IMG/VR virus record: IMGVR_UViG_2529292724_000017
Direction: 5' to 3' (one strand)
DNA length: 19,930 nucleotides
Source: a virus
Taxonomy: Duplodnaviria; Heunggongvirae; Uroviricota; Caudoviricetes
Part shown: one piece after another, positions 1,028-16,359 of the stretch
How the letters are laid out: each line of letters begins with the position of its first letter
How positions within the stretch are numbered: position 1 is the first letter of the stretch
Position numbers and translations under genes: made by a program
The notes under the pieces: model-generated
What the model was told of the DNA's origin: nothing
The model's database searches: none
What the model saw: only the letters and a program-made list of their open reading frames with translations

Positions 1028-2629
1028 TCATGCTCCACTCGATTTCAGTAATCCGCGATAGTCGAGGGCCGCGACACCTGCATCTATGCGCACCTTCCAG
1101 GCGACGCCATCAACAGTAAATCCCTCCTGCTCCTCAAGATATGGCGTATCAATACCATCAAGATAAGCGACCTCTATCGTGTCCATCCCCTTCGCCGCTG
1201 CCACATACCACTCCTTGTTATTGGCTTTATCAAGACGCGGCTCGACGATAACCTCTGCCATATCTTTCACCACGTTAATGATGCCGGGGTTCTGATTGAT
1301 AGTGCCTCCACCATCAATCGGAAAGAGTGATGACGATGACAGAATGGCGCGATGTGCGGCAGACTCCAGCGCAGCAGGGACCAGAACAAAAGCGGGGGTA
1401 ATATTCAGGGAGTCGCCGTTGCCATCCTCCTGTAATCGCATCAGCTTACGGGCTTCGTTAAGCCCCTCCATGTCCATATCCTTCGCAATAAGATTTTTAT
1501 GATCGGCATGGAATAACGCTTTACCATCCGTAAATTTGCCGTTGCTGGTTAACAGAAGATAAACCAGATTACCTACTGTTCTGGCGGCCGCACGCCCCAT
1601 CGCCATGGGGATTGTAGTTAACTGGGTCAGGTCATCGTTGATAATGGCCTGACGGGTAACAGAAAAAATATTACCGTATGTGGCCAGCGCAATAGGTACA
1701 CCTTTATCGCTGGTGGTGATGTATTTATATTCCGCACCTTCCGGTACTTTATCCAGCTTTGAAAAACCATTCAGACCAACGCGCTTTGCTTCATGAAAGT
1801 TTGAAAGCGATCCGGTACACGTCCATTTCTGGAACGTTTCGCCGCTGTCCTGCCAGCCTTTCAGCACTGATTTTTCAGCACCACCAGCCAGAATATGAGA
1901 AAAATCGCTGCTGCTGTGTGTGAAAGCTGCATTAACGACCTGCGAGCGATTTAAAAAATTGCCAACACTGATACCACGATCAGTTAGTGATGCCTGGGCC
2001 ATTTCAAAAAGGCTCATCATCGCGTAAGGATTTCCCCGCTCTGGGCGTTCATACCCGAGACGAGAATAAAGCCCCTGACGAATTGCATCGCCTGTTATGT
2101 TCCCGTTACCGGCATAAATATGAGTCGGGATATTTTTATTGGATGGCGTGGACTCGCGCCCCAGCTCGTTCAACAACTTTTCACGGGCCATCTCCGGTGT
2201 ACATGATGCATCCTCCAGGCACGCCATTTTGATCCCGTCGTAACGACTGCCGAACAGGCTAAACACTTCACTTATTCCGTTGATGCGCTTCTGTTCATTA
2301 CCAGCAATATTTGCCGCTCCCTGTGGCGGTGTAATCATTCCTTTAATGGTTTCCGGCATATGTAAAAAATCTCCTGTGCGTTTCGATTCAATTCGCGCCA
2401 TTACTCTGACGGATGGCAACAATTCATCAGCAAAACCGTGCTTAAGGCATTCTTTCCCATCCATCCAGGTTTCATCCTCCAGCATGGCGGTAATTTCCTG
2501 TGCTGATTTGCCCGTTTTTCTGGCATAAGCAGGGATTAACACGGTTTCCACCTTATCCAGCAAATCAGCATAATCACGCATATCGCCAGCATTTCCGCCA
2601 GAGATCCCCCACGGTTTATGGATCATCAT
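1028..2629 (-). pseudogene. ClpP-like prohead protease / HK97-like major capsid fusion, 3' portion only (gene interrupted by nested element)
   Basis: Colinear with the intact 638-aa paralog (4671..6587) from MMIHKPWGISGG onward; homology stops exactly at the 12-bp repeat 2618..2629; the first six codons of the track ORF lie in insert DNA. Confidence 0.75.
2618..2629. repeat. 12-bp direct repeat ATGGATCATCAT, left copy (putative att core / junction)
   Basis: Identical 12-mer at 12935..12946; capsid homology ends and begins exactly at the two copies. Confidence 0.65.
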
Positions 2630-2696
2630 GCAATACATTGAAATCATCCTACTGATAAATAAGATTAAAAATCACAATACAGATACGTTTGAGCTT

Positions 2697-2721
2697 CATT
2701 GCAATACGCATTGCAATACAC
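2697..2721. repeat. tandem repeat cattGCAATACgcattGCAATACAc (arm-type-like sites) near left junction; GCAATACA also at 2630..2637
   Basis: Same motif tandemly repeated at 12784..12807 immediately upstream of the integrase start. Confidence 0.5.
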
Positions 2722-2965
2722 GGTTGCTGGGTGATTTCAAAAGATGAATGCTGCGAAGGATGGAAATTTGGGAACTAGGTGGTGAATAGCACAACAAAAA
2801 ATCAGAATTCTACTAGCTTAAAATGATGCAAAAAGCATTCGTGGCATCGCAAGCGCTGTACAATTCGTTCTATAATGAAGAAAATTTCTAACAGACTTTA
2901 TCATTCAAAGGTGGAGGAGATGACAGCAATGCAACATGCATCACGCTCATACTTGAATTGTAAAG

Positions 2966-3010
2966 CTATCGTTAGAATCACAGCCTTTTTGTTCCGCTGA
3001 TCTAACGATA
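2966..3010. promoter_or_regulatory. perfect 10-bp inverted repeat TATCGTTAGA / TCTAACGATA with ~25-bp spacer, about 60 bp upstream of the cargo operon
   Basis: Seen directly; AT-rich intergenic region preceding ORF 3070. Confidence 0.3.
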
Positions 3011-3069
3011 AAACTAGTGGTAAAAGGTATATTTTTTAATTTTTCAGACGCTGGCGCGGGGTAATTAAA

Positions 3070-3372
3070 ATGAAATTTGTAAATATACGGTCATCCGAGT
3101 TGCCTGAAATAGATACCTTTGTAAAAGAATGTATCAACCAAGGACAATGGACTCTTTTCAAGGCCGAGAAGGGTGCAGTTAATGATAATAAAGTTGCTTT
3201 TTTTCTAAAGGCTGGCAAAGATTTCTTTGCATTAAATAACAGAGGAAGTGTTATCTCTGTATTTCAATCATTAGATTATAATCTTGAAATGAATGAGGTA
3301 ATTCATTTTTCAGATATTCCTAAACCTGAATCGTTGAGCAATATTGCTAGCTTAGGATTTGCTAGAGTTTAA
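3070..3372 (+). CDS. hypothetical protein (100 aa), first gene of AT-rich two-gene cargo cassette
   Basis: ORF in AT-rich block; 18-nt gap to the next gene, which has a good SD; no family recognised. Confidence 0.55.
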   Translation: MKFVNIRSSELPEIDTFVKECINQGQWTLFKAEKGAVNDNKVAFFLKAGKDFFALNNRGSVISVFQSLDYNLEMNEVIHFSDIPKPESLSNIASLGFARV

Positions 3373-3390
3373 TATATAAGGATATGTACG

Positions 3391-4281
3391 ATGGGATTAA
3401 TATCTGGAAATACACATTGGGTATTATTTTTACCTTGTGAGCACCAACCAGAAGATCGCCATGTTCAAGATTTAGTTCATGGCGTCTTTTGCTTAGAATC
3501 CTCAGGTATACAGCCATCTAATATTAGCATATATATTGATGGCCAAAATAGAGCCAACTTTAATAAGTTAATTTCGATTGCAACCCAACATAATTATACT
3601 ATCAAGCCTACATCTGAATTTTTCACCGACTGCGATACAAATAGTTATGAAAATCTAGTTATGTTTGTGACCGGACACGGAAGTATGAATGGTTTGGACT
3701 CTGCGCCGATCATAACCCCATACCGTTTATTGGACAGGTTAAAAAACACTCCTGTTCTCAAGCAAGCAATCGTTTATCTTGGTCAATGTTTCGCTGGTGT
3801 TTTCAACTACTTACCTGCTGGGCAGCGTAAGAGAGGTGAAGATGCCGACCCCGATGTCATTCTTATCGGGGCTACGAGTCTTCATGAAAGTTTGAGTAAT
3901 CCAACAACGGAAAATATTAATGGTATAGATTTTCCTTGGGTTGCAAATCAATTTTTATATCATGTATTTAAGTGGATATCATCCCCGAATGATATCGATG
4001 GGGATGGAAAACATACAGTAATTGACTCTTATAAGTATGCTGGAATCTCATCAAACATGACCAATCGTAGAATGAAGATAGGTTCTTTTGTAGCTTCGGT
4101 AGACTTGCATGAGCAATGGAATACTGCAAAAAAAGATCATGAAGCTAACTTGGCTGATCCACAAAAACTACTCCGTTATAGAGCATTAGATCAGCAATAC
4201 TATGAAAAACTGAACATTAACTATATTCATCAAGAGTGCTGGATATTAAATTCTGTACCTGCACAATCTGTTGAATTCTAA
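3391..4281 (+). CDS. caspase-like (clan CD cysteine peptidase fold) protein, 296 aa
   Basis: Hydrophobic strand then His-Gly (LVMFVTGHGS, H96) and hydrophobic strand then Gln-Cys (AIVYLGQCFAG, C133) about 37 residues apart, the pattern of caspase/clan CD catalytic dyads; SD AAGGA 8 nt upstream; EF-hand-like loop DIDGDGKHTVID at residues 201..212. Confidence 0.6.
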   Translation: MGLISGNTHWVLFLPCEHQPEDRHVQDLVHGVFCLESSGIQPSNISIYIDGQNRANFNKLISIATQHNYTIKPTSEFFTDCDTNSYENLVMFVTGHGSMNGLDSAPIITPYRLLDRLKNTPVLKQAIVYLGQCFAGVFNYLPAGQRKRGEDADPDVILIGATSLHESLSNPTTENINGIDFPWVANQFLYHVFKWISSPNDIDGDGKHTVIDSYKYAGISSNMTNRRMKIGSFVASVDLHEQWNTAKKDHEANLADPQKLLRYRALDQQYYEKLNINYIHQECWILNSVPAQSVEF

Positions 4282-4285
4282 TCCT

Positions 4286-4456
4286 TTACTTTTTTGAATA
4301 GATTGCTGCAAGTGCCGTTTTGAGGTCGTAATTTCGGCACTTGCAACTGCAACCAGAAATAGGGCGAACGTTTGACAAACGTTTAGCTATAGTCTGCCGA
4401 TGAAATCCAGTCACTTCCGCCAACTCACTTAAATTTAGAACTATCTTTTTCATCAT
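4286..4456 (-). pseudogene. truncated Nu1-like terS remnant (56 aa, DNA-binding domain only)
   Basis: Not in the supplied ORF track (below its length cutoff); translated by hand from the minus strand as MMKKIVLNLSELAEVTGFHRQTIAKRLSNVRPISGCSCKCRNYDLKTALAAIYSKK, which matches the N-terminal HTH region of the 285..770 product and Nu1; about a third the length of the full gene. Confidence 0.5.
4307..4345. other. perfect 11-bp inverted repeat TGCAAGTGCCG / CGGCACTTGCA (17-nt spacer) between convergent genes
   Basis: Seen directly; lies just 3' of the cargo operon stop and inside the terS remnant; no flanking T-run. Confidence 0.35.
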
Positions 4457-4567
4457 AATTACCCTTCAGATGTCGAACAAATAACATACAATCCATCATC
4501 TTTTCCACTTTTATAAAGTTTTACCTAATAAAATTCAGTTAGTTAGCGAATGATGATGATGTCTATA

Positions 4568-4668
4568 AAATTCAAAAACTAGCCGTTTCCCGCGATGCCG
4601 CCGCCCCGTGGCAGGCATCCCCGCCGGGAGTACCTTTTAAAAAAGGGCAGCATCTGCCGCCCTCCTGT
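4568..4668 (-). promoter_or_regulatory. conserved element, copy 2 (diverged), between capsid stop and truncated terS; terminator-like hairpin GGCAG-cat-CTGCC plus T6 on the minus strand, about 4638..4664
   Basis: Shares the aaaaactagcc...ccgccccgtggcagg...ccgggag core with copies 1 and 3. Confidence 0.45.
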
Positions 4669-4670
4669 CG

Positions 4671-6587
4671 TCATGCCGCCCCGCTCGACTTCACCATGCC
4701 CCGATAATCCAGCGCCGCCACGCCAGCATCGATACGCACCTTCCATGCAATACCGTCCACAGTGAAGCCCTCCTGCTGTTCCAGATACGGCACGTCCATT
4801 CCATCCAGATATGCCACCTCGATAGTGTCGGTGCCTTGCGCTGCAGTGACGTACCACTCCTTGTTGTTGGCCTTGTCCAGTCGCGGCTCAACCACTACCT
4901 GCGCCATATCCTTCACGACGTTGATAATGCCTGGGTTCTGGTTCAGCATACCGTTCTGGTCTACCGGGAACAGCGAAGATGATGACAGCACAGCTCGATT
5001 GGCTGCGCCTTCCAGCGCGGCAGGTACAAGGATATAGGCTGGGATAACATTAATAGGATCGCCGTTCGCATCCTCCTGCAGACGCATAGCCTTACGGGCC
5101 TCATTGAGTCCGTCTGTATCCATCCCTTTAGCGATGAGGTTTTTATGGTCGGCGTGGAACAACGCTTTACCATCTGTGAATTTGCTGTTGGCGGTCAGTT
5201 GCAGGTAGACCAGATTGCCAACCGTTCGTGCGGCGGCACGCCCCATTGCCTGTGGAATGGTCGTGAGCTGGCTCAGGTCATCGTTGATAATGGCCTGGCG
5301 TGTAACAGAGAAGATGTTTCCATAGGTGGCCAGCGCGATCGGCACCCCGCTGTCGCTGGTAGTGACATATTTGTATTCAGCACCTTCCGGGACTTTATCC
5401 AGTTCTGAAAAACCATTCAGACCGACACGTTTAGCCTCATGGAAATTCGACAGAGAACCGGTCTTTGTCCACTGCTGGAAAGTTTCCCCGCTGTTCTGCC
5501 AGCCAGTCAGCACCGACTTTTCAGCACCACCAGCCAGGATATGAGAGAAATCACTGGTGCTGTGCGTAAATGCCAGGTTCACGATCTGCGAGCGATTCCC
5601 GAAACCACTGACGCTGATACCACGATCCACCAGCGAAGCCTGCGCCATTTCAAACAGACTCATCATGGCGTAAGGGTTTCCCCTTTCGGCGCGTTCGTGA
5701 CCCAGACGGGCAAAAAGCCCCTGGCGGATAGCATCGCCGGTAATGTTGCCGTTACCTGCGTAAATGTGCGCGTTACTGGTTTTATCCGATGGGGTCGAGG
5801 TCTTACCCAGTGCCGTCAGCAGCATGTCTTTTGCTTTTTCAGGCGTGCAATCCACATCCTCCAGACACTGCATCTTGAGAGAATCATGCTTGCCGCCGAA
5901 CATGGCAAACAGATCCTTAATCTCGTTGATGCGGTTCTGTTCCGGTACAGCGCTACTGGTGGAACCTTTCGGGCTGGTGATCATCCCTTTAATTTCTTTT
6001 GGCATATGCTCAAAATCCTCAATTCGTTTTGACTCAATACAGGCCATTGCCCTGACGGCGGGTAACAATTCGTCAGCAAAACCCTGCGCTACACATTCGC
6101 GGCCATCCATCCATGTTTCATCCTCCAGCATTTCCGCCAGTGATTCGGCTGATTTTCCCGTTTTGCGTGCATATGCCGGGATCAAGACACTTTCGACTTT
6201 ATCCAGAAGTTCGGCGTAGTCGCGCATGTCGTTGGCGTTCCCACCAGAGATTCCCCACGGTTTGTGAATCATCATGAGTGCGTTTTCGGGCATAACGATA
6301 CGGTCGCCAGCCATTGCAATAACTGACGCCATAGACGCGGCGAGACCGTCGATCTGCACTGTAATTTTTGCCGGGTGTTTATTCAGAAGGTTATAGATAG
6401 CGATGCCGTCAAAAACATCGCCACCGGGTGAATGAATGTGCAGGCTGATATGGGAGATATCGCCTAGGGCTTTCAGGTCTTCGGAGAACTGCTGCGCCGT
6501 AATACCCCAGCCGCCGATCTCTTCGTAGATGCTGATATTGGCGCTGGTGCCATCGCTGGCCGCTTTGATGGTGTACCAGCCTTTCAT
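4671..6587 (-). CDS. prohead protease (ClpP-like, serine motif GLAASMAS) fused to HK97-like major capsid protein, 638 aa, intact
   Basis: N-terminal ClpP-like block (IHSPGGDVFDG...GLAASMASVIAMAG); long C-terminal region typical of major capsid proteins; colinear with both fragments of the interrupted paralog. Confidence 0.7.
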   Translation of the reverse strand: MKGWYTIKAASDGTSANISIYEEIGGWGITAQQFSEDLKALGDISHISLHIHSPGGDVFDGIAIYNLLNKHPAKITVQIDGLAASMASVIAMAGDRIVMPENALMMIHKPWGISGGNANDMRDYAELLDKVESVLIPAYARKTGKSAESLAEMLEDETWMDGRECVAQGFADELLPAVRAMACIESKRIEDFEHMPKEIKGMITSPKGSTSSAVPEQNRINEIKDLFAMFGGKHDSLKMQCLEDVDCTPEKAKDMLLTALGKTSTPSDKTSNAHIYAGNGNITGDAIRQGLFARLGHERAERGNPYAMMSLFEMAQASLVDRGISVSGFGNRSQIVNLAFTHSTSDFSHILAGGAEKSVLTGWQNSGETFQQWTKTGSLSNFHEAKRVGLNGFSELDKVPEGAEYKYVTTSDSGVPIALATYGNIFSVTRQAIINDDLSQLTTIPQAMGRAAARTVGNLVYLQLTANSKFTDGKALFHADHKNLIAKGMDTDGLNEARKAMRLQEDANGDPINVIPAYILVPAALEGAANRAVLSSSSLFPVDQNGMLNQNPGIINVVKDMAQVVVEPRLDKANNKEWYVTAAQGTDTIEVAYLDGMDVPYLEQQEGFTVDGIAWKVRIDAGVAALDYRGMVKSSGAA

Positions 6588-6796
6588 TTTTCCCCTTCCG
6601 TTACAGCGAAGCCATTTTCATCAAGCCATGCGTTGACTGCGTGCCGGACTACCTGTGCCACTCCGGGCAATGGCTGGACAGGAAGATTTTTCAGATGATC
6701 GTTGCGGTATTGCTTAAGGCGTACAACGGTTTGCGCGTCCAGATGTACGGAGCCGCCTTTAGTCTCGCCAGTGTTTAAATCGTTAATGTCACTCAT
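6584..6796 (-). CDS. small conserved protein (70 aa) translationally coupled to the protease-capsid gene
   Basis: Homolog of 13258..13464 (MS.INDLNTG...GGSVHLDAQTV.RLKQYR...PLPGVAQ.VRHAVN.WL..NGFA); ATG at 6794..6796 with SD GAGGA; 4-nt overlap with the capsid start. Confidence 0.6.
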   Translation of the reverse strand: MSDINDLNTGETKGGSVHLDAQTVVRLKQYRNDHLKNLPVQPLPGVAQVVRHAVNAWLDENGFAVTEGEK

Positions 6797-6941
6797 GATG
6801 TCCTCTACTGTATAAGTAAACAGGTTATGATGATTGATCACCAAAAGTGGTAAGTGAACAATTTTTTATCTGAAAAATAGATTTATGATGAAAAAAAATT
6901 TTTGTATGGTCTTAGATTGGAATAAACAGAAAGGTTAAAAA
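6797..6941 (-). promoter_or_regulatory. putative promoter region of the small-protein/capsid operon, with conserved TTACCACTTTT box
   Basis: Boxes aaaagtggtaa and aaaaatagatt recur at 13500..13550 upstream of the paralogous operon. Confidence 0.3.
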
Positions 6942-7655
6942 ATGGATCTCACTCGTAATGACGAACTCCTTTTGAATGATGCAGCTAGACGCTCATTTCG
7001 GGATATGGCAGACCAGGATTATCTCTCAGCTCGTCTGTGTTATAAGCACAAATTGAATTTTCAATTTTTATGGCTTTCGCAACAAGCCGTAGAGAAATAT
7101 ATTAAAGCGATTTTACTTTATAATAGAGTTCCAGTATTAAAATTAAATCACAATTTAAACAAAGGGCTGGCAAAGATTAAAGAAATCCCATATCTTGAAT
7201 TAGACCTAGATGTAAAAAGTGAGCGATTCATAGATTATCTCAATGAGCAGGGCCCAAATAGATACTTCCAAAACACTATGTATACCGAAGGCTTTGAAAT
7301 TATAACCTTGGATAGAACCATCTGGGAATTAAGAAGATACTGCAAGCCACTAAACTACTCAATTACTAACCCAAAAGGTGAAGTGATAGAAATGTTAGAA
7401 CATGAATTGAGTAGCATAAAAAATTCGAAGTCGAGGCCTTATCATACGTTCAAACTATTTGGAGGTTACTTAGAAAAAAGATTAAAAGATAATAAATTCA
7501 ATCAGGGCGACATACTTACATGGAAAAATTTATTTTTTGGAAGAAATAAAAAAAATGCAATTAGAATTGGAAGATCAATGCATGTAACTCATCCAACTCA
7601 TTATATGTACCCAAATGCAACGGAAATGCTCAGTCGTTTCTTTAAAATAAAATAA
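6942..7655 (+). CDS. HEPN-domain protein (237 aa), single-gene AT-rich cargo
   Basis: N-terminal region matches the HEPN pattern as recalled: helix, then SQQAVEKYIKAILL, then NHNLNKGL, then ...NRYF (compare hQQAvEKalKAll ... tHdL ... RYP); SD AAAGG; opposite strand to backbone. Confidence 0.5.
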   Translation: MDLTRNDELLLNDAARRSFRDMADQDYLSARLCYKHKLNFQFLWLSQQAVEKYIKAILLYNRVPVLKLNHNLNKGLAKIKEIPYLELDLDVKSERFIDYLNEQGPNRYFQNTMYTEGFEIITLDRTIWELRRYCKPLNYSITNPKGEVIEMLEHELSSIKNSKSRPYHTFKLFGGYLEKRLKDNKFNQGDILTWKNLFFGRNKKNAIRIGRSMHVTHPTHYMYPNATEMLSRFFKIK

Positions 7656-7743
7656 TTACATTCCAATTTTATTTACCGCTGTTAAATAAGTAAGGTATAT
7701 CTTTATTTATCGACATTGATAATCATGAAAGAGTATATCTTTT

Positions 7744-7960
7744 TTGCCGCACCTAGCGCATTTCTCACCGCACTTTCATCCCGCGCACTTAGGTGCGCAA
7801 TCCAACATGCACCGTACAGCCATTAAAACCAGTAATGGGGCGGGTTTGCAGGTGATTAATGCCAAACCGCGCACTTTCTTCGTATATACATGGAAAAAGT
7901 GCGGCAAGTGTATGTTTTATGAGCATTTCGCGCATCACGCGCATTTCTTGCCGCACTTTT
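7744..7960. repeat. iteron-type origin region: repeats of (T)TGCCGCAC / CGCACTTT in both orientations plus palindrome GCGCACTTAGGTGCGC
   Basis: Five or more copies within ~220 bp immediately downstream of the replication gene ending at 7965. Confidence 0.5.
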
Positions 7961-7964
7961 CAGG

Positions 7965-9374
7965 TTAAATTATCGTGATATCTCCTGAATCATCGATAAA
8001 GATAATATTCTCCCTAACGAGTTTATCAAGCCAGCGTTTAAAACCTTTGCGGCCGTTCTCTCCAAACAGAGTGGTAATATCATCACGTATAACAGAGACA
8101 TTACACGGTTCACCTTTGGCTTTTCGGCTCCGGATTGACTGCCAGAGTGCAGCGTGGTTCCCAGTCAGGTGCTTGATATCAGCAAGTTCCGGATCAGGTT
8201 CTCGTGCCTCTCGTGGCAGGTCCTGCACCACCAGCGACGAAATAAGCTCACCATCACGATCTGTGAACAATTCGATCGGACGCAGATCGAATGCGGCCTG
8301 TTTCGGCTCCTCCGCATCTTTCATCTTCGTACAGGTCAGGATTATCGCCCCACCATCCCCCTCGCGCCGGACATTGAACTCTGCATCGAGCGCAGCCCTG
8401 AAAGCACTGGAACCACGTGCGCCTTTGGTATCGTCTTTTCCTGAATGATGCACCACCAGCAACGTGGCGCCAGTCTCACGCTTGATGACGTCGCAGCCTT
8501 CAATAAACGCCCCCATGTCACGAGCATCGTTTTCATCGTTACCACCAAAGCACCGCGCTAGAGTATCTATGACAATCAGGCGAACCGGCTGCCCCGTTTT
8601 GGACTTAACGTCACGCGCAGCTTTGATCATCTCCTGCATTTCCTCACGGCGAACCGGGAAAACCGGACGGTTTACCAGATACAGATTATTTAGTTTCACA
8701 CCATGTTTTTTCTCCCACGCCTTTATTCGCCGCGGAACGCCAATACCACCTTCACCTACTACGTACATCACAGCGCCGGCTGATACCGACTTCCCCGCCC
8801 ACTTCATCCCGGCTGCAACGTGACAAGCCCAGGACACCGCCAGAAAACTTTTATACGAACCGCTCGGGCCGTAGATACTGCTCAGGCTGTTAGCGGGAAG
8901 ATAACTTTTTAACGTGTAATCCTGCTCCTGATCGTACCCATCAGAGCCCACGCTTAAAGGAAGGCTGTGCCGCAGTGACTCCTCTCGCACAGAGACTTCA
9001 ACCTGTTCACGCAGACGAGAAAGATATTCCCTCCAGTCCTCAGGCTCATGGTCGGGGATTCCTTTATACAATTTGGCATCCTGCACGCCAGCCAGCGCCA
9101 GCTTTTCAGCAATGTTATTAATCTGGATAGGCTTTATATTCCCTGCCAGGTAAATCCGCACGGCACGACGGCCATCATCCACAATGCGCAGGTTATCCAG
9201 CTCTGCCAGTTGTTTTGGCCCAAGGTAAACAGGAGGAGTGGTATCTTCGGCAATCTGTTTACCAAGCCCCTCTTCCCAACCCTTCGCATGGGCGTATGCT
9301 TCTGACCCGGCAAAAATAACTGCCTCCGTGAATTTTTCTTTTGGCAGGTGTTTCAGATTCGGTGCGTTTTTCAT
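7965..9374 (-). CDS. replication initiator: primase-associated N-terminal domain fused to RepA/DnaB-like RecA-fold ATPase (469 aa)
   Basis: Walker A GPSGSYKS and Walker B-like LIVIDTL; first ~125 aa shared with the 14246..16063 product. Confidence 0.65.
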   Translation of the reverse strand: MKNAPNLKHLPKEKFTEAVIFAGSEAYAHAKGWEEGLGKQIAEDTTPPVYLGPKQLAELDNLRIVDDGRRAVRIYLAGNIKPIQINNIAEKLALAGVQDAKLYKGIPDHEPEDWREYLSRLREQVEVSVREESLRHSLPLSVGSDGYDQEQDYTLKSYLPANSLSSIYGPSGSYKSFLAVSWACHVAAGMKWAGKSVSAGAVMYVVGEGGIGVPRRIKAWEKKHGVKLNNLYLVNRPVFPVRREEMQEMIKAARDVKSKTGQPVRLIVIDTLARCFGGNDENDARDMGAFIEGCDVIKRETGATLLVVHHSGKDDTKGARGSSAFRAALDAEFNVRREGDGGAIILTCTKMKDAEEPKQAAFDLRPIELFTDRDGELISSLVVQDLPREAREPDPELADIKHLTGNHAALWQSIRSRKAKGEPCNVSVIRDDITTLFGENGRKGFKRWLDKLVRENIIFIDDSGDITII

Positions 9375-9694
9375 TTCAGCCCCTTATCCCATCCGTCAGA
9401 TCCAACACTCAGCGGCAGAGAAGAGCGCAGAGCAGCGATTTTTTTACGCACGTTTTCTTTTACGGTCTCCTGCCACTCCCTGCTTTCCTCAGGGAGATAA
9501 ATAAATTCTTTTCGGAACCGGTACTCAGAAAAAATACACTCATGTGAATACCCATCCCGGACATACGTAATACGGCTATCCGTTATGCATGTGACAGTAA
9601 TTTTTTCTCCGCGAGAATCTTTCCAGCGACTGTTAAGCTCGATTTTTGGTTGAGCGATGCCCTCAAGCTGAACCTGATTGAATTTTTTAATCAT
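9371..9694 (-). CDS. conserved hypothetical protein (107 aa) translationally coupled to the replication gene
   Basis: Homolog of 16060..16359 (shared block TV..I...R.Y..RDGYS); 4-nt overlap with downstream start. Confidence 0.55.
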   Translation of the reverse strand: MIKKFNQVQLEGIAQPKIELNSRWKDSRGEKITVTCITDSRITYVRDGYSHECIFSEYRFRKEFIYLPEESREWQETVKENVRKKIAALRSSLPLSVGSDGWDKGLK

Positions 9695-9698
9695 GAAT

Positions 9699-9878
9699 TT
9701 ATTCCTTGTCGGTAGCCGTTAAACCGTATGCTTCAGCAGCCTGACGAACTGCCTGGATAAAACCTTCCGGTGTGGCCACGATTTCGTCCGGACGAAGGCG
9801 GCGCTCTGTAACCTGACCGTTTTTAACCGTCACCAGTACGCGGATCTCGTAATCAGCAGGTAAGGCGGAGTTATCCAT
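9699..9878 (-). CDS. hypothetical small protein (59 aa)
   Basis: Internal ATG of track ORF 9699..10004, overlapping the stop of the upstream Ash-like gene by 8 nt; clean composition ([16 protein letters not shown]...). Confidence 0.4.
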
Positions 9879-10158
9879 GGCGCACCTCCATTGGCACAGC
9901 TTCATTGCTGTAAGGATCGCTACCCAAGATGCTCCATAGGGTGCGATGTTCAGGATCCATAAACGACACTGAGAGCGGGCTTTCTGTTCGGATTTTGGCG
10001 GCAAAGGTCAAGTCCCAGCCGCAGAACTTTGCACGGGCAGTATCTTCAGTGTCTGCAATGGTGCGCAGAACTATCGGGAGACAAGAGTGACCTCGCGGCG
10101 TGCCAAGGAATAGCCATGTAAATTTTGGGCGAGTTTGGGTATGCTGTTGATCAGCCAT
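9871..10158 (-). CDS. Ash/Icd-like small protein typical of P4-type elements (95 aa)
   Basis: [12 protein letters not shown]...[17 protein letters not shown] resembles the KFTW(R/L)F...E.EAR pattern of Ash/Icd-like proteins as recalled; ATG at 10156..10158 with SD GAGGT; first gene of the replication operon. Confidence 0.45.
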
Positions 10159-10190
10159 AACTGTTACCTCAACTAACGGTTTGTGGTTAG

Positions 10191-10235
10191 ACGTCCCGTG
10201 AGTGGTTCCAAGCACTTCCGGGACGTTGCTTTTTT
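10191..10235 (+). terminator. conserved hairpin ACGTCCCG-(20 nt)-CGGGACGT followed by TGCTTTTTT, terminator-like on the plus strand
   Basis: Paralogous hairpin at 16919..16952 has ACGCCCCG/CGGGGCGT, a compensatory base-pair change; both sit ~40 nt upstream of an Ash-like start. Confidence 0.45.
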
Positions 10236-10251
10236 CACGTCAAGCGTGATA

Positions 10252-10296
10252 ACGTACGTACGTAATAGCAACATCCTATGAGGTTACGTACGTACA
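10252..10296. promoter_or_regulatory. two palindromic operator-like sites (ACGTACGTACGT and TACGTACGTACA) flanking the promoter of the RHH gene
   Basis: Two near-identical palindromes ~33 bp apart; the second overlaps the RHH start codon; region lies between divergent genes. Confidence 0.45.
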
Positions 10297-10487
10297 TGTC
10301 AACAATAAAACGAGATAAAACACCCAAAGGAGAGGGCTTGTCTCCGACATTCCAAATCCGAATAAGTCCTGAATTGCGCCAGCAGATGAATGAAGCTGCT
10401 GAGCGTGAGGGAGTAAGTCTTGGTAATTGGCTTAAAGGTCTGGCTAGAAATGAACTTATTAAGCAAGGAATTGAACCTAAAGGTTAG
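10296..10487 (+). CDS. ribbon-helix-helix (Arc/CopG/HicB-type) DNA-binding protein, candidate repressor of the inner element
   Basis: FQIRISPELRQQMNEAAEREGVSLGNWLKGLARNEL fits a beta-strand plus two helices RHH; divergent from the replication operon; start placed at the second ATG (track ORF begins 10278). Confidence 0.55.
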   Translation: MSTIKRDKTPKGEGLSPTFQIRISPELRQQMNEAAEREGVSLGNWLKGLARNELIKQGIEPKG

Positions 10488-10540
10488 TTTTCACAAGCAC
10501 TCTTTGATTTTTTCAGTAAAAATTAAATTAAGGAAATTCT

Positions 10541-11251
10541 ATGGATGATTTATATACACCATCTGAATATTTTATGTTCGTAGAGAAATTTGATCATTAC
10601 TTCCCACGAAAAAGCCCTTTTAACTCATTATTATTCGAGTTCAATTATAGATTAGAAGATATAGTTGTTTTTCATCGCTTTGTTATCAACACCTATTCAA
10701 AAAATAAAAAAGCAATTGATGTACAATATAATAAATTTAATTTTCTTGATGATAAACAAAAAAATTCCCTTTCTGATGACGAGTATGAAGCGTATCAACT
10801 CAGGTTTGCAAGGCATATGGAATACATTAACCATCAAACTGATTTGAATGAAAAAGCGTCTTACATTGCTAACGATAGTGTCGTTATAAACTTATGGGCC
10901 ATGAATGAACAATATATGACTAGAGGATTGGCCAACCTAATATCTCAAAAAGAAAATAAAAATTTAAATGAAGTTAAAACGCCTTACAAATGGGATACAA
11001 TCAAAAGTAAATTCCTGTCATATGGAATCAACTTTGAGACATTGCCATCTTATGATGACATTAATGAATGTAGAGTACTGAATAATAAAATAAAACATCT
11101 GAACATAGTAGATTCTGGTTTAGAAGTTTTCCCTCCCTTCAAAGGTAAGCTTAACGAATCACTTACTGGCATGGCCTTTCCTCTTCAAAAATATATCATA
11201 GGCTCTCATCACTTTATAGGAATGCTATTAGAAGAGTGCTCATTAAAATAA
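10541..11251 (+). CDS. hypothetical protein (236 aa), AT-rich cargo downstream of the RHH regulator
   Basis: SD AAGGAA; 53-nt gap after the RHH gene with no obvious terminator; no family recognised. Confidence 0.55.
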   Translation: MDDLYTPSEYFMFVEKFDHYFPRKSPFNSLLFEFNYRLEDIVVFHRFVINTYSKNKKAIDVQYNKFNFLDDKQKNSLSDDEYEAYQLRFARHMEYINHQTDLNEKASYIANDSVVINLWAMNEQYMTRGLANLISQKENKNLNEVKTPYKWDTIKSKFLSYGINFETLPSYDDINECRVLNNKIKHLNIVDSGLEVFPPFKGKLNESLTGMAFPLQKYIIGSHHFIGMLLEECSLK

Positions 11252-11297
11252 ACGCATGGCAACGTATAATTTATCGCTTAATACGTTGCCATATCTC

Positions 11298-11543
11298 TCA
11301 TTTATTTTTATCGAACCAATCTCCTTTAATCCAAGCTTGCATCTCTGAGAGCCGGTAAGCAACTGCTGACGGCCCAATTTTGATTCGCTTAGGAAATTTT
11401 CCTTCCTGTTCCATGCGCCAGCGCGTTGAGTTAGACAACGTAGTCATAGCCCGGCATTCAGGTTCGCGAATCATTCTGTCAAGGTCAGGCATGTACTGGA
11501 GATCTTCTTTTTTCACAACGGATAACATAGCCATATCAGGCAC
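11298..11543 (-). CDS. alpA: AlpA-family small DNA-binding protein (transcriptional regulator/excisionase-like)
   Basis: IREPECRAMTTLSNSTRWRMEQEGKFPKRIKIGPSAVAYRLSEMQAWI matches the AlpA HTH pattern; SD AAGGAG; start overlaps the integrase stop. Confidence 0.65.
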   Translation of the reverse strand: MPDMAMLSVVKKEDLQYMPDLDRMIREPECRAMTTLSNSTRWRMEQEGKFPKRIKIGPSAVAYRLSEMQAWIKGDWFDKNK

Positions 11544-12771
11544 TCCTTTTCTTAATTACTTTTACTGTATTTTCTTCACCCACCAGCCCATCAAGGTAGT
11601 CAACCCATCGGTCCAGTGCTTCTTGCTTTTGAGGGATATACTTGCTGCGGTTATAGACTCCGGCCACGCCCTTTATGGTATGCCCCAGCAGCTGCTCTAC
11701 GACCATAAAATCAACGCCCATATCGTTAAGGCTTGTCGAGAACGTTCGTCTCAAATCATGTAATGACCAGCGTTTTTCATGTTTCAGAGAGATAAAGTTT
11801 GTGCATCCCATCGTACTGACGGTTGAATCAGATTTCAGTTCGCCAAATATGTAGCCTCTCCTTTTAGTCTCTTCGTGCAGGTTTACGATCCACTGGCGCA
11901 TTTTTTGAGGAACGGGGCGAATAATTTCTTCGCCGTTTTTACTGTGCTCTTTAGGTACTGTCCAAATCCACTTATCGAAATCCCACTCATCCCATGTAGA
12001 TAAACGCGCCTCACTCAGCCTGCAGCCAAACACGAGACACAAAATCGCCATCCTTTTTTTGTAATTCATTACACGGGTTTTGCCTTTACCATGAAAGTAC
12101 ACTCCCCACAGATCGGCGACGTAGCTTTCCTCAAGTAGCCGCTCTCTCTTGTTCTGATACTTACCGATATCACCAGGGCTCAAATCATCAAGCACATTGC
12201 ACCGCACATACTGGCGCACCCGGCAGTATTTGAAGATCTGCTTTAACTCAATCAGCATTGCAGCAGACTGAACCGGCGCGATTTTCTTTATGCGGTCGAA
12301 GCACTTGATCCAGTCTGACAGACCGCATTTCTCGACAGGAAACCCGCCGATGTAGGGAAAAATGTATCTCTCATAACGGCGATAGAGCCGTAAAGTCTCT
12401 TTGCGCTTTTCCCTGGCATAGTTATCAAACCAGTAATCGATAGCGTTCTTCACAGTTACTGGAGTGAACAGGTTCTCTTTGGTGAGTTTGTTCTCTATTC
12501 GTGGGTCGAGTCCCTGAGATAGCCATGCCCGGCACTCGTCCCTTTTCTCTCTGGCCTGTTTAAGGGTCATATCTGGATACTTGCCTAACGTCATCCAGAC
12601 GGGGGCGCTTTGTCGGCCGGAATGTCTGAAGAAATACACAAAGCTCACAGTGCCACTAACGCTCACTCTGACAGACAGTCCACGACCATCTGCCACCATC
12701 TTTTGACGCGGCTGGGGTTTACCATGTAAGGCCTTTAACGCCTTGTCGCTTAACTTGTTCTCGCCCGCCAT
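11536..12771 (-). CDS. int: tyrosine site-specific integrase, P4-type (411 aa)
   Basis: Length and motifs of phage integrases (C-terminal LHDLRRTF, LLGH, then Y in VYNRSKY); paralog at 18701..19930. Confidence 0.8.
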   Translation of the reverse strand: MAGENKLSDKALKALHGKPQPRQKMVADGRGLSVRVSVSGTVSFVYFFRHSGRQSAPVWMTLGKYPDMTLKQAREKRDECRAWLSQGLDPRIENKLTKENLFTPVTVKNAIDYWFDNYAREKRKETLRLYRRYERYIFPYIGGFPVEKCGLSDWIKCFDRIKKIAPVQSAAMLIELKQIFKYCRVRQYVRCNVLDDLSPGDIGKYQNKRERLLEESYVADLWGVYFHGKGKTRVMNYKKRMAILCLVFGCRLSEARLSTWDEWDFDKWIWTVPKEHSKNGEEIIRPVPQKMRQWIVNLHEETKRRGYIFGELKSDSTVSTMGCTNFISLKHEKRWSLHDLRRTFSTSLNDMGVDFMVVEQLLGHTIKGVAGVYNRSKYIPQKQEALDRWVDYLDGLVGEENTVKVIKKRSA

Positions 12772-12783
12772 AAAACCTCATTC

Positions 12784-12807
12784 TGCAATACACATTGCAA
12801 TACACAC
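12784..12807. repeat. tandem repeat TGCAATACAcatTGCAATACAcac immediately upstream of the integrase start
   Basis: Same motif as 2697..2721 at the other end of the inner element. Confidence 0.5.
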
Positions 12808-12934
12808 TTAACTGCAACGCCGAAAAACAGTAGAAAAGCAATGCAAACAACACCTCTTCTTTCTTCATAATTAACAATAAGTTAATGAATGAATACGGTT
12901 CTTCATGCGTACCCATGAGGTAGTGTGAAGGATA

Positions 12935-12946
12935 ATGGATCATCAT
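12935..12946. repeat. 12-bp direct repeat ATGGATCATCAT, right copy (putative att core / junction)
   Basis: Identical to 2618..2629. Confidence 0.65.
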
Positions 12947-13258
12947 CATGGCGTTCTCCGGCATCACTACACGATCGCCAGCCATTGCGACCACCGAAGC
13001 CATTGAAGCCGCAACACCATCGATATAAACCGTAATGTCTGCCGGATGATTCCGTAGCAGGTTATAGATGGCGATGCCTTCAAACACATCACCACCTGGT
13101 GAATGGATCCTCAGATTGATATGTGAAACATCGCCAAGGGCTTTCAGGTCTTCCGCGAACTGCTTTGCAGTAACACCGAAGCCGCCAATCTCCTCATAGA
13201 TAGATATATCCGCCGCTCCACGAACATCCGCCGCCTTAATGGTGTACCAGCGATTCAT
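12935..13258 (-). pseudogene. ClpP-like prohead protease / capsid gene, 5' portion only (N-terminal ~108 codons)
   Basis: MNRWYTIKAADVRGAADISIYEEIGGFGV...GVAASMASVVAMAGDRVVMPENAMMMIH is colinear with the N-terminus of the intact paralog; the track ORF 12719..13258 reads on into insert DNA after the repeat. Confidence 0.7.
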
Positions 13259-14005: not shown

Positions 14006-14232
14006 TCACCTGTTCACCTTTTGATATTTTCTCTTTTAATTCATAATGTTAAGGGGTGAACAGTTTCACAAAAACTATTCACCAACTGTTCACCACTGTT
14101 CACCCTTGAAGCTCAATAAACAATCAAAAAGGTGAACAGTGAATAGTTTGGTGAACAGTTCATAAATAACTGCTCACCCTATAATATACTGATATAAAAG
14201 ATATTTATGACAGGGTGAACAGTGGTGAACAG
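14006..14232. repeat. iteron-type replication origin: eight or more copies of GGTGAACAG / CTGTTCACC in both orientations with AT-rich spacers
   Basis: Copies near 14009, 14055, 14086, 14096, 14131, 14151, 14214 and 14224; immediately downstream of the primase-helicase gene. Confidence 0.65.
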
Positions 14233-14245
14233 TTATTCCATAAGT

Positions 14246-16063
14246 TTAATTTTTGCTATCGTCATTAGTGACCGATACACATGATGGCATCCAGTCTTCT
14301 GATTCCTCCGTCAGTGTCACGTTTGAACGCAAACCGTGCTTCGTTTTCCGTTTCATATACTCCCTGCCATATTCCGCCATTGCCCCCGGCATATCTTTAC
14401 CGAAGCGCGTCAGTGTTACAGGTTTACCAAACCCATGTGCCCTCATATAAGCCAGATAGGCATGATAGAGATACCTGCGTGGGCTGAATGGCACAATTTC
14501 AGCATTACCCACTAACAGGCCATCACACATTACCGACGCCATGAGATAGCCGCAGAAGTCCACCAGCGAATCCCCCTCTCGCTTTATCGCCAGTGCTTCT
14601 TCAGATTTCTGCTGCTCATATAACAGGCGTCTGGCTTCGTCCTGGTCAGCAAACCGTGTAAGCAGATGGCGAATCACTACCGCCAGCTCACCTTCTATTT
14701 TTTCCGCCAGCATTGGATCACGTTCGTTCTCCGGTACAACTTCCGAAAAATTGAATATCACCCGACGACGTGAGATCCCCCCGCTGCGGTCACTGAATGA
14801 CATGGCGTTATTGTTAACCGCCAGCACTACTGCCGGAATACGCGTTGAGTAGGGGGCTTTGTGTTTCGGGTCAATTGCCACCTTGTCACCGCCTGTAATA
14901 GCCTTAATCCCTGCCCCATCACCAGCGTAGCGGGTCATATCCGGCATGATAATCAGCGAAAAGCCAACCACTAACGCGCGTTCCCTTGCATCTTCCAGCG
15001 CCTTCATGCTTGCCGATACTGTGTTGGCCTTACCCGCCAGCATGGTGCAAATCTCCGCCATCACGCTTTTACCACTTCCCCCTGGACCTGTTACCTCAAT
15101 GAATAACTGCCAGTCGTACCGGTTCGCCAGCACCATGAATAATGCAGCCAGTACGCGATCCGCCTTGCGGTCATTCTCAGCCACCGAACGGCGTAACCAC
15201 TTCCAGAAATTCGGCGCATGTGTTGCCAGCGTTTCCCCCTCTGCTGGTGGGCTGAAAGGTAATTCACTGGCAATTAACAACCAGTCGTTTTTGTTATGCT
15301 CCCGAAAATTACCTGTTCTGGTATCAAATACCCCGTTACTGAATCCAATCAGGTTACGGGCTGTATTCCCCATTACAGGCAAACTTAACTTCATGGTATC
15401 GACCGCCGATTTAATGGCGTTCTGCGAATAGCTGATCTCCGCATCAATGAAAATCTGTGCCATAGCTCGCTGTAATTCTTTATCCTGTACTGGCTCCCAT
15501 ACAACGCCGTTGTAATGGTGAACAGTGTCAGAGTCAGCATGAATCGCCAGTTCACCGCCATAATGTGCCAGGAGAACTTCGCCGCGTTGACTTGCTCCCA
15601 TCTGGTTAAGCGCCAGTGATGAAGCGTTATCGTCTTTTACCCGCTCTTTTTTCTTTACAGGCAGTTCAACTACCTTTTTCTTTTCCGCCTGCTCTGCCCG
15701 TTCACGTTCCAGATATTCGCGCCAGTTCTCCCGTTTCTGGCTGTGCATTCCTTCAGGATAATAATCAGCATCCCTGACACCTGCCGCTGCCAGTTTCTGC
15801 CCGATGGTATTAACAAGTCCCGGACGCAATAACCCCGCCTGGTAGAGACGCACGCGATAGCGTCCGTCTGGTACGATTTGCAGGTTGTCCAGTTCGGCAA
15901 GTTGTTGCTCTCCAAGCCAGACAGGTGGCACGTTATCGCCAGCCAGTCGCCCGTCCTGTTCCTGCCACTGCTTCGCATGTGCCCACGCATCACTACCCGC
16001 AAAAATGATGACTTCCGTCATTTTGTCACGCGGTTGGTGTTTTAAATTTGGCGCTTTTTTCAT
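14246..16063 (-). CDS. primase-helicase replication protein (P4 alpha / D5-like, SF3 helicase Walker A VTGPGGSGKS), about 605 aa
   Basis: N-terminal domain shared with the 7965..9374 product; central primase-like region; Walker A and DEAD-like motifs; start placed at MKKAPNLKH (second Met), overlapping the upstream stop as ATGA. Confidence 0.7.
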   Translation of the reverse strand: MKKAPNLKHQPRDKMTEVIIFAGSDAWAHAKQWQEQDGRLAGDNVPPVWLGEQQLAELDNLQIVPDGRYRVRLYQAGLLRPGLVNTIGQKLAAAGVRDADYYPEGMHSQKRENWREYLERERAEQAEKKKVVELPVKKKERVKDDNASSLALNQMGASQRGEVLLAHYGGELAIHADSDTVHHYNGVVWEPVQDKELQRAMAQIFIDAEISYSQNAIKSAVDTMKLSLPVMGNTARNLIGFSNGVFDTRTGNFREHNKNDWLLIASELPFSPPAEGETLATHAPNFWKWLRRSVAENDRKADRVLAALFMVLANRYDWQLFIEVTGPGGSGKSVMAEICTMLAGKANTVSASMKALEDARERALVVGFSLIIMPDMTRYAGDGAGIKAITGGDKVAIDPKHKAPYSTRIPAVVLAVNNNAMSFSDRSGGISRRRVIFNFSEVVPENERDPMLAEKIEGELAVVIRHLLTRFADQDEARRLLYEQQKSEEALAIKREGDSLVDFCGYLMASVMCDGLLVGNAEIVPFSPRRYLYHAYLAYMRAHGFGKPVTLTRFGKDMPGAMAEYGREYMKRKTKHGLRSNVTLTEESEDWMPSCVSVTNDDSKN

Positions 16064-16359
16064 TTCTGCTCTCTCCACGCGGCAATCATGTTTTTCAGTT
16101 CCTGTAGTTTTTTATCCACATCCACACGTGACACATGGTTATTTCTGGAAGGCGGGATTTCCCGCCGGAATCTGCTAATAAAGATCTCCACGTTCAGCGA
16201 GCTATGAAATGAATAGCCATCACGAATAAAGTACACACGGTCAAACATTATCGATTTTACTGTTACTCTGTTGCCGTTCTTATCCCGATAAATAGCGCCG
16301 GGGATAATTTTGGGATGTGCATAACCGCTGGCAGTCAAGCCAGATAAATATGTTCTCAT
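16060..16359 (-). CDS. conserved hypothetical protein (99 aa) translationally coupled to the primase
   Basis: Homolog of 9371..9694. Confidence 0.55.
   Translation of the reverse strand: MRTYLSGLTASGYAHPKIIPGAIYRDKNGNRVTVKSIMFDRVYFIRDGYSFHSSLNVEIFISRFRREIPPSRNNHVSRVDVDKKLQELKNMIAAWREQK

Follow-up and report, generated by a model that had tools for sequence, protein, structure and literature searches.

Gram-negative phage-inducible chromosomal islands (PICIs), capsid-forming PICIs (cf-PICIs) and P4-like satellites are widespread vehicles of virulence and defense genes. Their replication gene, pri, serves as a marker, and its product is called a primase. In EcCICFT073, pri is needed for replication and for efficient transfer, and pri together with its origin (ori) is a working replicon that supports plasmid replication in Escherichia coli DH5alpha without a helper phage (PMC6092414). 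In Gram-negative PICIs, the replication gene follows int, alpA and some small genes, and is itself followed by two sets of iterons that flank an AT-rich region (PMC6092414). In the literature that we searched, EcCICFT073 Pri is treated as a single "primase" gene, and no N-terminal module that recurs across core types is described. Here we analyze a stretch of 19,930 nucleotides from the IMG/VR record IMGVR_UViG_2529292724_000017 (hereafter, the window), which carries two satellite islands, A and B. We found that the replication proteins of the two islands, one RepA-like and the other D5-like, begin with the same domain of about 126 amino acids (the N-domain) and continue into different helicase cores.

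Other described replication proteins also bear on this comparison. The alpha protein of P4 contains the Pfam families Zn_Ribbon_Prim (residues 30-66), Toprim_3 (210-299), D5_N (336-467), DUF5906 and Pox_D5. RSF1010 RepA (1g8y) is a helicase core alone, of 279 amino acids, and it works with a separate primase (RepB') and an initiator (RepC). Twinkle has an inactive primase-like domain that handles single-stranded DNA (ssDNA).

Two replication proteins with one N-terminal domain

The RepA-like gene of island A (positions 7965..9374 of the window) encodes 469 amino acids, and the D5-like gene of island B (14246..16063) encodes 605 amino acids, counted from the ATG at 16063. Both genes, and all of the domains within them, are on the minus strand. 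An earlier note on this DNA had placed both open reading frames (ORFs) at these coordinates, and we found them there. In the list of ORFs that accompanied the sequence, the D5-like gene begins with the GTG of 16078, but the MK(N/K)AP start of every homolog corresponds to the ATG at 16063. This ATG is likely the true start because the N-termini of the homologs align and because the ATG overlaps the stop codon of a DUF4222 gene.

Residues 1-126 of the RepA-like protein (8997..9374; copy A of the N-domain) and residues 1-127 of the D5-like protein (15683..16063; copy B) are identical at 74 of 128 aligned positions (58%; BLASTP, E = 4e-41). We also found the motifs from which the earlier note had argued for a common domain (MK(N/K)APNLKH, (V/I)IFAGS, PPV.LG and QLAELDNL) and for different ATPase modules behind it (Walker A sequences GPSGSYKS and VTGPGGSGKS). 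Past residue ~127, BLASTP finds only chance-level segments, plus one weak local match between the two C-termini (E = 0.006, in a single comparison). Full-length homology, which the note had named beforehand as the outcome that would refute it, is ruled out: the similarity stops at about residue 127 and the cores have different folds, matching different solved structures. The window contains only these two copies of the N-domain (tblastn).

The core of the RepA-like protein (8430..8939, residues 146-315) is of the RecA type. It matches Pfam's AAA_25 (E = 1.7e-41), contains the Walker A motif GPSGSYKS, and also matches the structure of RSF1010 RepA (1g8y, E = 5e-5). Beyond what is present in RSF1010 RepA, the protein has the N-domain, a C-terminal region of about 150 amino acids (7965..8429, residues 316-469 plus the stop codon), and iterons of its own adjoining the gene. 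From the cognate iterons immediately downstream, we infer that the C-terminal region is the candidate origin-binding part.

The D5-like protein continues instead into a P4-alpha-type helicase of superfamily 3 (SF3) with an ori-binding C-terminal domain (14246..15580, including the stop codon). Its Pfam domains are D5_N (15191-15580, residues 162-291), DUF5906 (14765-15091, residues 325-433, with the Walker A motif GPGGSGKS) and Pox_D5 (14291-14578, residues 496-591). It matches the structures of the C-terminal domain of P4 alpha (1ka8, E = 1.8e-24) and of the SaPI5 primase-helicase (7ola, E = 2.6e-10). The Pfam assignments (AAA_25 versus D5_N/DUF5906/Pox_D5) bear out the claim that the two cores are different.

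EcCICFT073 Pri (NC_004431 1382241-1383995; Fillol-Salom et al. 2018, PMC6092414) is 49% identical to the D5-like protein over its full length. The two have in common the N-domain, D5_N, DUF5906 and Pox_D5, as well as an overlapping DUF4222 gene upstream and iterons downstream. In contrast to EcCICFT073 Pri, the RepA-like protein has the same module on a RecA-type AAA_25 core, and AAA_25 is not among the Pfam hits that define the PICI "Primase" family (PMC10111431).

The D5-like protein resembles P4 alpha in its helicase and its ori-binding winged-helix C-terminus (residues 145-605 are 51% identical to residues 320-771 of P4 alpha), in the octamer TGTTCACC downstream, and in the order of the modules. 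Because the match to P4 alpha extends only over residues 320-771, we conclude that the N-domain replaces the primase region. Residues 1-319 of P4 alpha comprise Zn_Ribbon_Prim and the catalytic Toprim_3; the D5-like protein has the 127-amino-acid N-domain instead, in which no similarity to residues 1-319 is detectable by sequence and the DxD motif is missing. Also, PHROG primase-helicase profiles align to both cores of the window only from profile position ~280-515 on. The earlier note had labeled this protein a D5-like primase-helicase. This label should be qualified, as no recognizable catalytic primase domain is present.

When the two genes are compared as DNA, the alignment covers no more than their first ~99 bp (70% identity). 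This rules out a recent local duplication of the N-domain and implies that the N-domain is an old shared module.

Spread of the N-domain and exchange of cores

Among 1.84 billion representative proteins, an exhaustive search with a profile turned up just 130 clusters with the N-domain, and the domain is always N-terminal. The full-length members (n = 20) have AAA_25, D5_N/DUF5906/Pox_D5, DUF927 or VapE-like architectures, and none of the 20 has a match to Toprim, AEP (archaeo-eukaryotic primase) or Zn-ribbon families. A scan of one genome per species gave us 24 loci from about 15 genera of Enterobacterales (11 with DUF927, 10 with D5, 1 with AAA_25, 1 with DUF5906 only and 1 truncated). The most distant members are from Pasteurellaceae and have D5 or DUF927 cores. 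Judging from these sequences, the satellites of Enterobacterales and Pasteurellaceae have the N-domain in front of at least four ATPase cores that differ by Pfam and belong to two helicase superfamilies. The N-domain is present in 15 plasmid records and in just 4 of 50,697 phage records (two of 15-16.5 kb, which is the size of a satellite, one 3-kb fragment and one of 106 kb). Thus, it is largely confined to satellite-type elements.

From the two proteins of the window, the earlier note had proposed that domain shuffling placed one N-terminal domain on two helicase cores. Other genomes reinforce this proposal, and the shuffling of the N-domain among helicase types is now strongly supported by three kinds of sequence comparison. 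First, the similarities of the N-domains and of the cores are not congruent, and they disagree in both directions. The D5-like protein of the window and its counterpart from locus L007 are 88% identical in the core but only 55% identical in the N-domain; conversely, the D5-like protein is just 44% identical in the core to the proteins from locus L022 or EcCICFT073, but 73-74% identical in the N-domain. Across core types, N-domain identities reach 83-98% at the highest. Second, the genes of loci L005, L007, L008, L012 and L015 are chimeric in their DNA: they match the RepA-like gene of the window over the first ~355 bp (71-80%) and its D5-like gene over the remainder, from ~65 bp past the end of the domain (76-85%). 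Third, two loci on different contigs of Erwinia psidii IBSBF 435, L009 (DUF927) and L011 (D5), share a 550-bp patch of 97.6% identity, at 3872-4421 in both. The patch extends from -129 bp to codon 140, the surrounding DNA is unrelated, and it looks like a recent gene-conversion tract. The junction is always in a charged linker, at about residues 120-150.

These junctions could also be explained if the N-domain had no common biochemical role and were kept as a 5' block of homology for swapping cassettes between co-resident satellites, which would thereby avoid incompatibility. The conversion tract is confined to the N-domain segment and involves two satellites of one genome, the chimeric junctions are always at the linker, and the nested satellites of the window differ in their cores and iterons, as this explanation would have it. 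However, the N-domain is predicted to fold with high confidence (predicted local distance difference test, or pLDDT, of 92.5), and from Enterobacterales to Pasteurellaceae it keeps 23-33% identity, with structural residues conserved. Furthermore, the two copies in the window are still 58% identical as protein, although their DNA has diverged past detection except for 99 bp. The persistence of the protein identity despite the divergence of the DNA indicates that the protein, and not the homology of the DNA, is under selection, and we consider it improbable that a homology block is all there is to the N-domain.

Each replication gene of the window is followed by a putative origin. Directly 3' of the RepA-like gene, a search for families of direct repeats and for inverted pairs found an iteron array at 7743..7960, with (G/C)CGCACTTT repeats that run in both directions about an AT-rich center. 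Directly 3' of the D5-like gene, the array at 14007..14238 has at least 10 copies of GGTGAACAG/CTGTTCACC in both orientations around an AT-rich stretch, with 8 exact copies of TGTTCACC. Both islands have the arrangement of replication gene and origin that was described for Gram-negative PICIs. Experimental evidence for replication from pri and ori is known for EcCICFT073 only (PMC6092414), and the replicons of the window are likened to it by their architecture.

The octamer TGTTCACC of island B is the same as the annotated type-1 ori repeats of P4. This fits the 51% identity of the D5-like protein to P4 alpha, which includes the ori-binding domain. Given the matching repeats, cross-recognition between the origin of island B and P4-type origins is possible.

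The earlier note had also suggested that the shared domain might mediate recruitment to the origin or, as another option, contact with factors of the host or helper. With iterons directly behind their genes, both proteins are initiator helicases that depend on an origin, which would be in keeping with an N-domain that recognizes the origin or recruits a protein there. As far as origin specificity is concerned, the comparison of iterons contradicts the first of these suggestions. N-domains that are 74-83% identical to copy A adjoin four unrelated types of iterons (TGCGGCAA, GGTGAACA, TGAACCAAC or TGGGATAA); the iterons of L004, a related AAA_25 locus, are TGCGGCAA. Across the related loci, the iteron type tracks the core and the C-terminal region, not the N-domain, which implies that the N-domain does not set the origin specificity. 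In addition, the D5-like protein has a P4-type ori-binding C-terminus, as shown by its match to 1ka8, along with TGTTCACC iterons. We give a role for the N-domain at a particular origin very little credence, but it may be a non-specific binder of DNA or ssDNA.

Some other proteins with the N-domain deserve mention. A 558-amino-acid protein from Citrobacter youngae (L027:4001-5677) has the N-domain and DUF5906 (E = 2e-21) without D5_N or Pox_D5, and it also has a weak VapE-like match; an AlpA-like gene is directly upstream, and there are no obvious iterons downstream. In Mannheimia haemolytica, a protein of just 176 amino acids (P0217) is present on 339 contigs and clusters with a 727-amino-acid DUF927 protein. 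When the N-domain was compared to BFVD with Foldseek, there was one match (E = 5e-4), to an uncharacterized 112-amino-acid phage protein (A0A6J5LID1), which is its best structural match (TM 0.62/0.69). P0217 and A0A6J5LID1 may be near-stand-alone N-domain proteins, and could be truncations or free-standing versions.

Fold and possible role of the N-domain

No Pfam or NCBIfam model matches the N-domain. Within PHROGs, it is found only in phrog_2850 (unknown function) and in positions 84-184 of phrog_864 ("DNA primase"). We modeled the N-domain with AlphaFold2 from an alignment of 24 sequences (pLDDT as above; predicted template modeling score of 0.86). The model is a compact alpha/beta domain with a four-stranded parallel sheet in the order b1-a1-b2-a2-b3-a3-b4, which is that of the Toprim fold (b1, 18-22; a1, 26-42; b2, 49-51; b3, 71-76; a3, 82-94; b4, 99-103; a4, 115-125), and the closest fold is that of the DnaG-type Toprim. 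The N-domain ends ~35 residues ahead of D5_N, as Toprim_3 does in P4 alpha. We rejected homology to Toprim at the level of sequence, which is at chance in Pfam and NCBIfam, in hhalign and Smith-Waterman comparisons, and in a search of PDB sequences with two N-domain family profiles, which gave no Toprim signal above chance.

The conserved residues of the N-domain are not those of a catalytic Toprim. None of the members examined has the metal-binding DxD of Toprim domains after b3, where the sequence is A/x-G78-x (AGN, AGL, AGE, CGE, FGK and others) instead. Strand b1 is followed by A, V or I and then by an invariant glycine. Across the family, only A4, G23, A26 and L56 are invariant, P48, G78, A93 and R122 are nearly so, and no acidic residue is conserved. 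None of the N-domain proteins has a zinc ribbon. There is no sequence similarity between the N-domain and T7 gp4 or metazoan Twinkle. Unlike these proteins, the N-domain is a Toprim-sized unit only, without a zinc finger or an RNA-polymerase subdomain, and it is also found on SF3-type cores. We conclude that the N-domain is a probable non-catalytic alpha/beta module. By its fold and position it is Toprim-like and probably a degenerate DnaG/P4-type Toprim, rather than a demonstrated member of the Toprim family.

RefSeq and PHROGs nevertheless name these proteins "DNA primase," so the N-domain might itself be a minimal, non-canonical primase, in which case the proteins would be true primase-helicases, as annotated. 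This name stems from the "primase_Cterm" model (TIGR01613), which describes the helicase region and not the N-domain. A primase would be consistent with the DnaG-type fold, with the D or E that the enterobacterial members conserve at position 25 in the b1-a1 loop, and with the position of the N-domain, which is that of the Toprim domain in P4 alpha. Furthermore, we did not detect a separate primase elsewhere in either island (using Pfam and PHROGs), and EcCICFT073 pri with ori is autonomous (PMC6092414). But the position of the DxD motif reads AG and then N, L, D, E or H, and the proteins lack the zinc ribbon and the N-terminal RNA-polymerase subdomain of DnaG, T7 gp4 and P4 alpha. At position 25, the members from Pasteurellaceae show T, L, R, K, N, Q or G, and only the four residues named above are invariant across the family. 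By eye, EAYAHA resembles EGYATA from P4, and PEDW resembles GDWND. These resemblances are just a lead, with no support from scores, because all of the sequence tests against Toprim are at chance level. It is very unlikely that the N-domain is a canonical primase, and we also think it unlikely to be a minimal one.

The gene upstream points to another potential role. In island A, a DUF4222 gene (9371..9694, minus strand; Pfam DUF4222, E = 2e-15) runs 4 bp (ATGA) into the start of the RepA-like gene. In island B, a DUF4222 gene (16060..16359, minus strand; from the RefSeq annotation of a near-identical strain) overlaps the start of the D5-like gene in the same way, also by 4 bp (ATGA). The two DUF4222 proteins are 39% identical. 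Such translational coupling of DUF4222 is frequent: the overlap recurs with pri in EcCICFT073 and in 12 of the 24 loci, in which DUF4222 is directly adjacent, and in 2 more it is further upstream. The N-domain could be a regulatory or sensor module that turns on the helicase after induction, either a Rossmann-like ligand binder or a docking site for a regulator from the satellite or the helper phage, such as the co-translated DUF4222 protein. Features typical of a phosphate-binding Rossmannoid site are present, namely a loop of small residues, A-G-(S/T/A), behind b1 and glycines behind both b3 and b4, but there are no conserved polar residues to bind a ligand. Moreover, ~10 of the 24 loci lack DUF4222 or have unrelated small genes in its place, which rules it out as an obligate partner. 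EcCICFT073 pri and ori were reported to be sufficient when expressed from a foreign promoter (PMC6092414), although that clone may have included DUF4222. Overall, we doubt that the N-domain is a regulatory or sensor module.

The replication proteins of these satellites consist of the N-domain, a charged flexible linker, and an exchangeable helicase/origin cassette with its cognate iterons. As a whole, the explanation that we favor, with moderate confidence, is a modular Pri whose N-domain is a degenerate Toprim with a generic host-coupling function. The first module is the ~126-amino-acid domain that is common to the replication proteins of both satellites; the second is the charged flexible linker; and the third is an exchangeable replicon cassette that comprises the helicase core, the C-terminal origin-binding region and, directly after these, the cognate iterons. 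Recombination at or close to the linker has repeatedly joined the N-domain to AAA_25, P4-alpha-type, DUF927 and VapE-like cores. The N-domain would provide a generic function to any satellite helicase in these hosts, most plausibly coupling to the host's priming machinery or replisome (DnaG, DnaB/DnaC, the ssDNA-binding protein SSB, or Pol III). Alternatively, its role might be in the handling of ssDNA, like that of the inactive primase-like domain of Twinkle. The exchange of cassettes behind a constant N-domain would allow co-resident or nested satellites to keep separate origins that do not cross-react. We suggest a generic host-coupling role because the N-domain is indifferent to the origin and to the type of helicase, is largely confined to satellite-type elements, and is located at the position of the primase. 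Also, EcCICFT073 Pri, which has the same architecture, replicates with its ori without a helper (PMC6092414).

Several observations weigh against this explanation. The residue equivalences between the N-domain and Toprim were set by the order of secondary structure elements and not by coordinates. Foldseek found nothing significant in the PDB for the N-domain; hhalign of the N-domain against E. coli DnaG and P4 alpha gave probabilities under 1%; Smith-Waterman scores against Toprim were the same as for shuffled controls; and Toprim_3 had just one marginal match among 24 members (E = 0.048). The D/E25 of the enterobacterial members lies where the glutamate of Toprim would be in the model, so some residual chemistry may be possible. 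As to the role, coupling to the host is a candidate arrived at by exclusion, and the shared 5' segment could partly reflect the mechanics of recombination (as a homology block) instead of a shared function.

More specifically, the N-domain might be a satellite-specific, portable adaptor that arose from a dead Toprim primase and that recruits the host's primase or replisome to whichever helicase it is fused to. We offer this version of the host-coupling role only tentatively. If it is true, then satellites could drop their own primase and freely swap helicase/origin cassettes of two superfamilies. An adaptor to the host primase or replisome would also be of use as a compact tool, and satellite replication might be attacked through it.

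Much of what we describe is of kinds that are already known. The D5-like protein, a relative of EcCICFT073 Pri and P4 alpha, is a Gram-negative PICI Pri, the RepA-like protein has an AAA_25 helicase of the RepA type, and the nested arrangement of the islands has been published. In principle, primase-helicases of modular architecture and primase domains that have been inactivated are known as well. What appears to be undescribed, in the literature that we searched, is the delineation of the ~126-amino-acid domain, the fact that it is fused to at least four ATPase cores of two superfamilies, and the direct evidence for its exchange as a unit. This defines a domain that no current Pfam or NCBIfam model covers, and it splits "Pri," which in the proteins examined here has no recognizable catalytic primase, into two parts, an N-terminal module that is conserved and probably non-catalytic and a helicase/origin cassette that can be exchanged. 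The shared module may explain why all-against-all clustering places very different helicases in one "Primase" family. It also offers a reason for the compatible replicons of nested or co-resident satellites.

The nested islands and their other genes

The window is 99.5% identical to a region of the E. coli chromosome that adjoins tRNA-Ile, mug and rpoD. In both islands the order of genes is int, HTH (helix-turn-helix)/AlpA, small genes including an Icd-like gene, DUF4222, the replication protein, iterons, and late genes. Rfam and tRNA scans of the window gave no matches.

A gene of island B that encodes a fusion of ClpP protease and capsid proteins is interrupted at residue ~105-110 by island A (~10.1 kb). 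The N-terminal piece (12719..13258) matches residues 1-110 of an intact paralog, the C-terminal piece (1028..2647) matches residues 105-637, and island A occupies the space between the two pieces, at ~2700-12805. On either side of it are 22-bp motifs (2700-2721 and 12784-12805) that are the reverse complement of the published arm site of HE-PICIs, a doubled TGTATTGC. The split gene and the flanking arm motifs rule out a reading of the two islands as a tandem. Mageeney et al. (2023, PMC10111431) reported 24 HE-PICIs in E. coli at the site C:CLP_protease:110, within a PICI at tRNA-Ile2, which yields a 20.6-kb composite. The window has the same split of CLP_protease at ~105-110, the doubled TGTATTGC on both sides, a length of ~20 kb and, in the near-identical strain, a tRNA-Ile adjacent, and we found no differences in architecture. 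By its sequence features, then, the window is this published composite of an HE-PICI nested within the tRNA-Ile2 PICI. The domain that is common to the two replication proteins is not discussed in that study (PMC10111431).

Island A also has cargo on the plus strand (3070-4281, 6942-7655 and 10541-11251), which comprises a HEPN-domain protein, a pair of ORFs of 100 and 296 amino acids, and an ORF of 236 amino acids. The cargo at 6942-7655 and 10541-11251 is AT-rich (GC ~0.27-0.36). The 296- and 236-amino-acid ORFs have no match to any Pfam or PHROG family, and the sole match for the 100-amino-acid ORF is phrog_30138 (unknown function). These may be defense or accessory genes.

In island B, a 396-amino-acid ORF (16902-18092, minus strand) lies between the AlpA gene and the Icd-like gene. 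It has no match in Pfam, but residues 50-82 contain a short Bro/anti-repressor-like motif (PHROG, E ~ 5e-5). In the reference strain, the hypothetical gene that is annotated near this position is only 717 bp.

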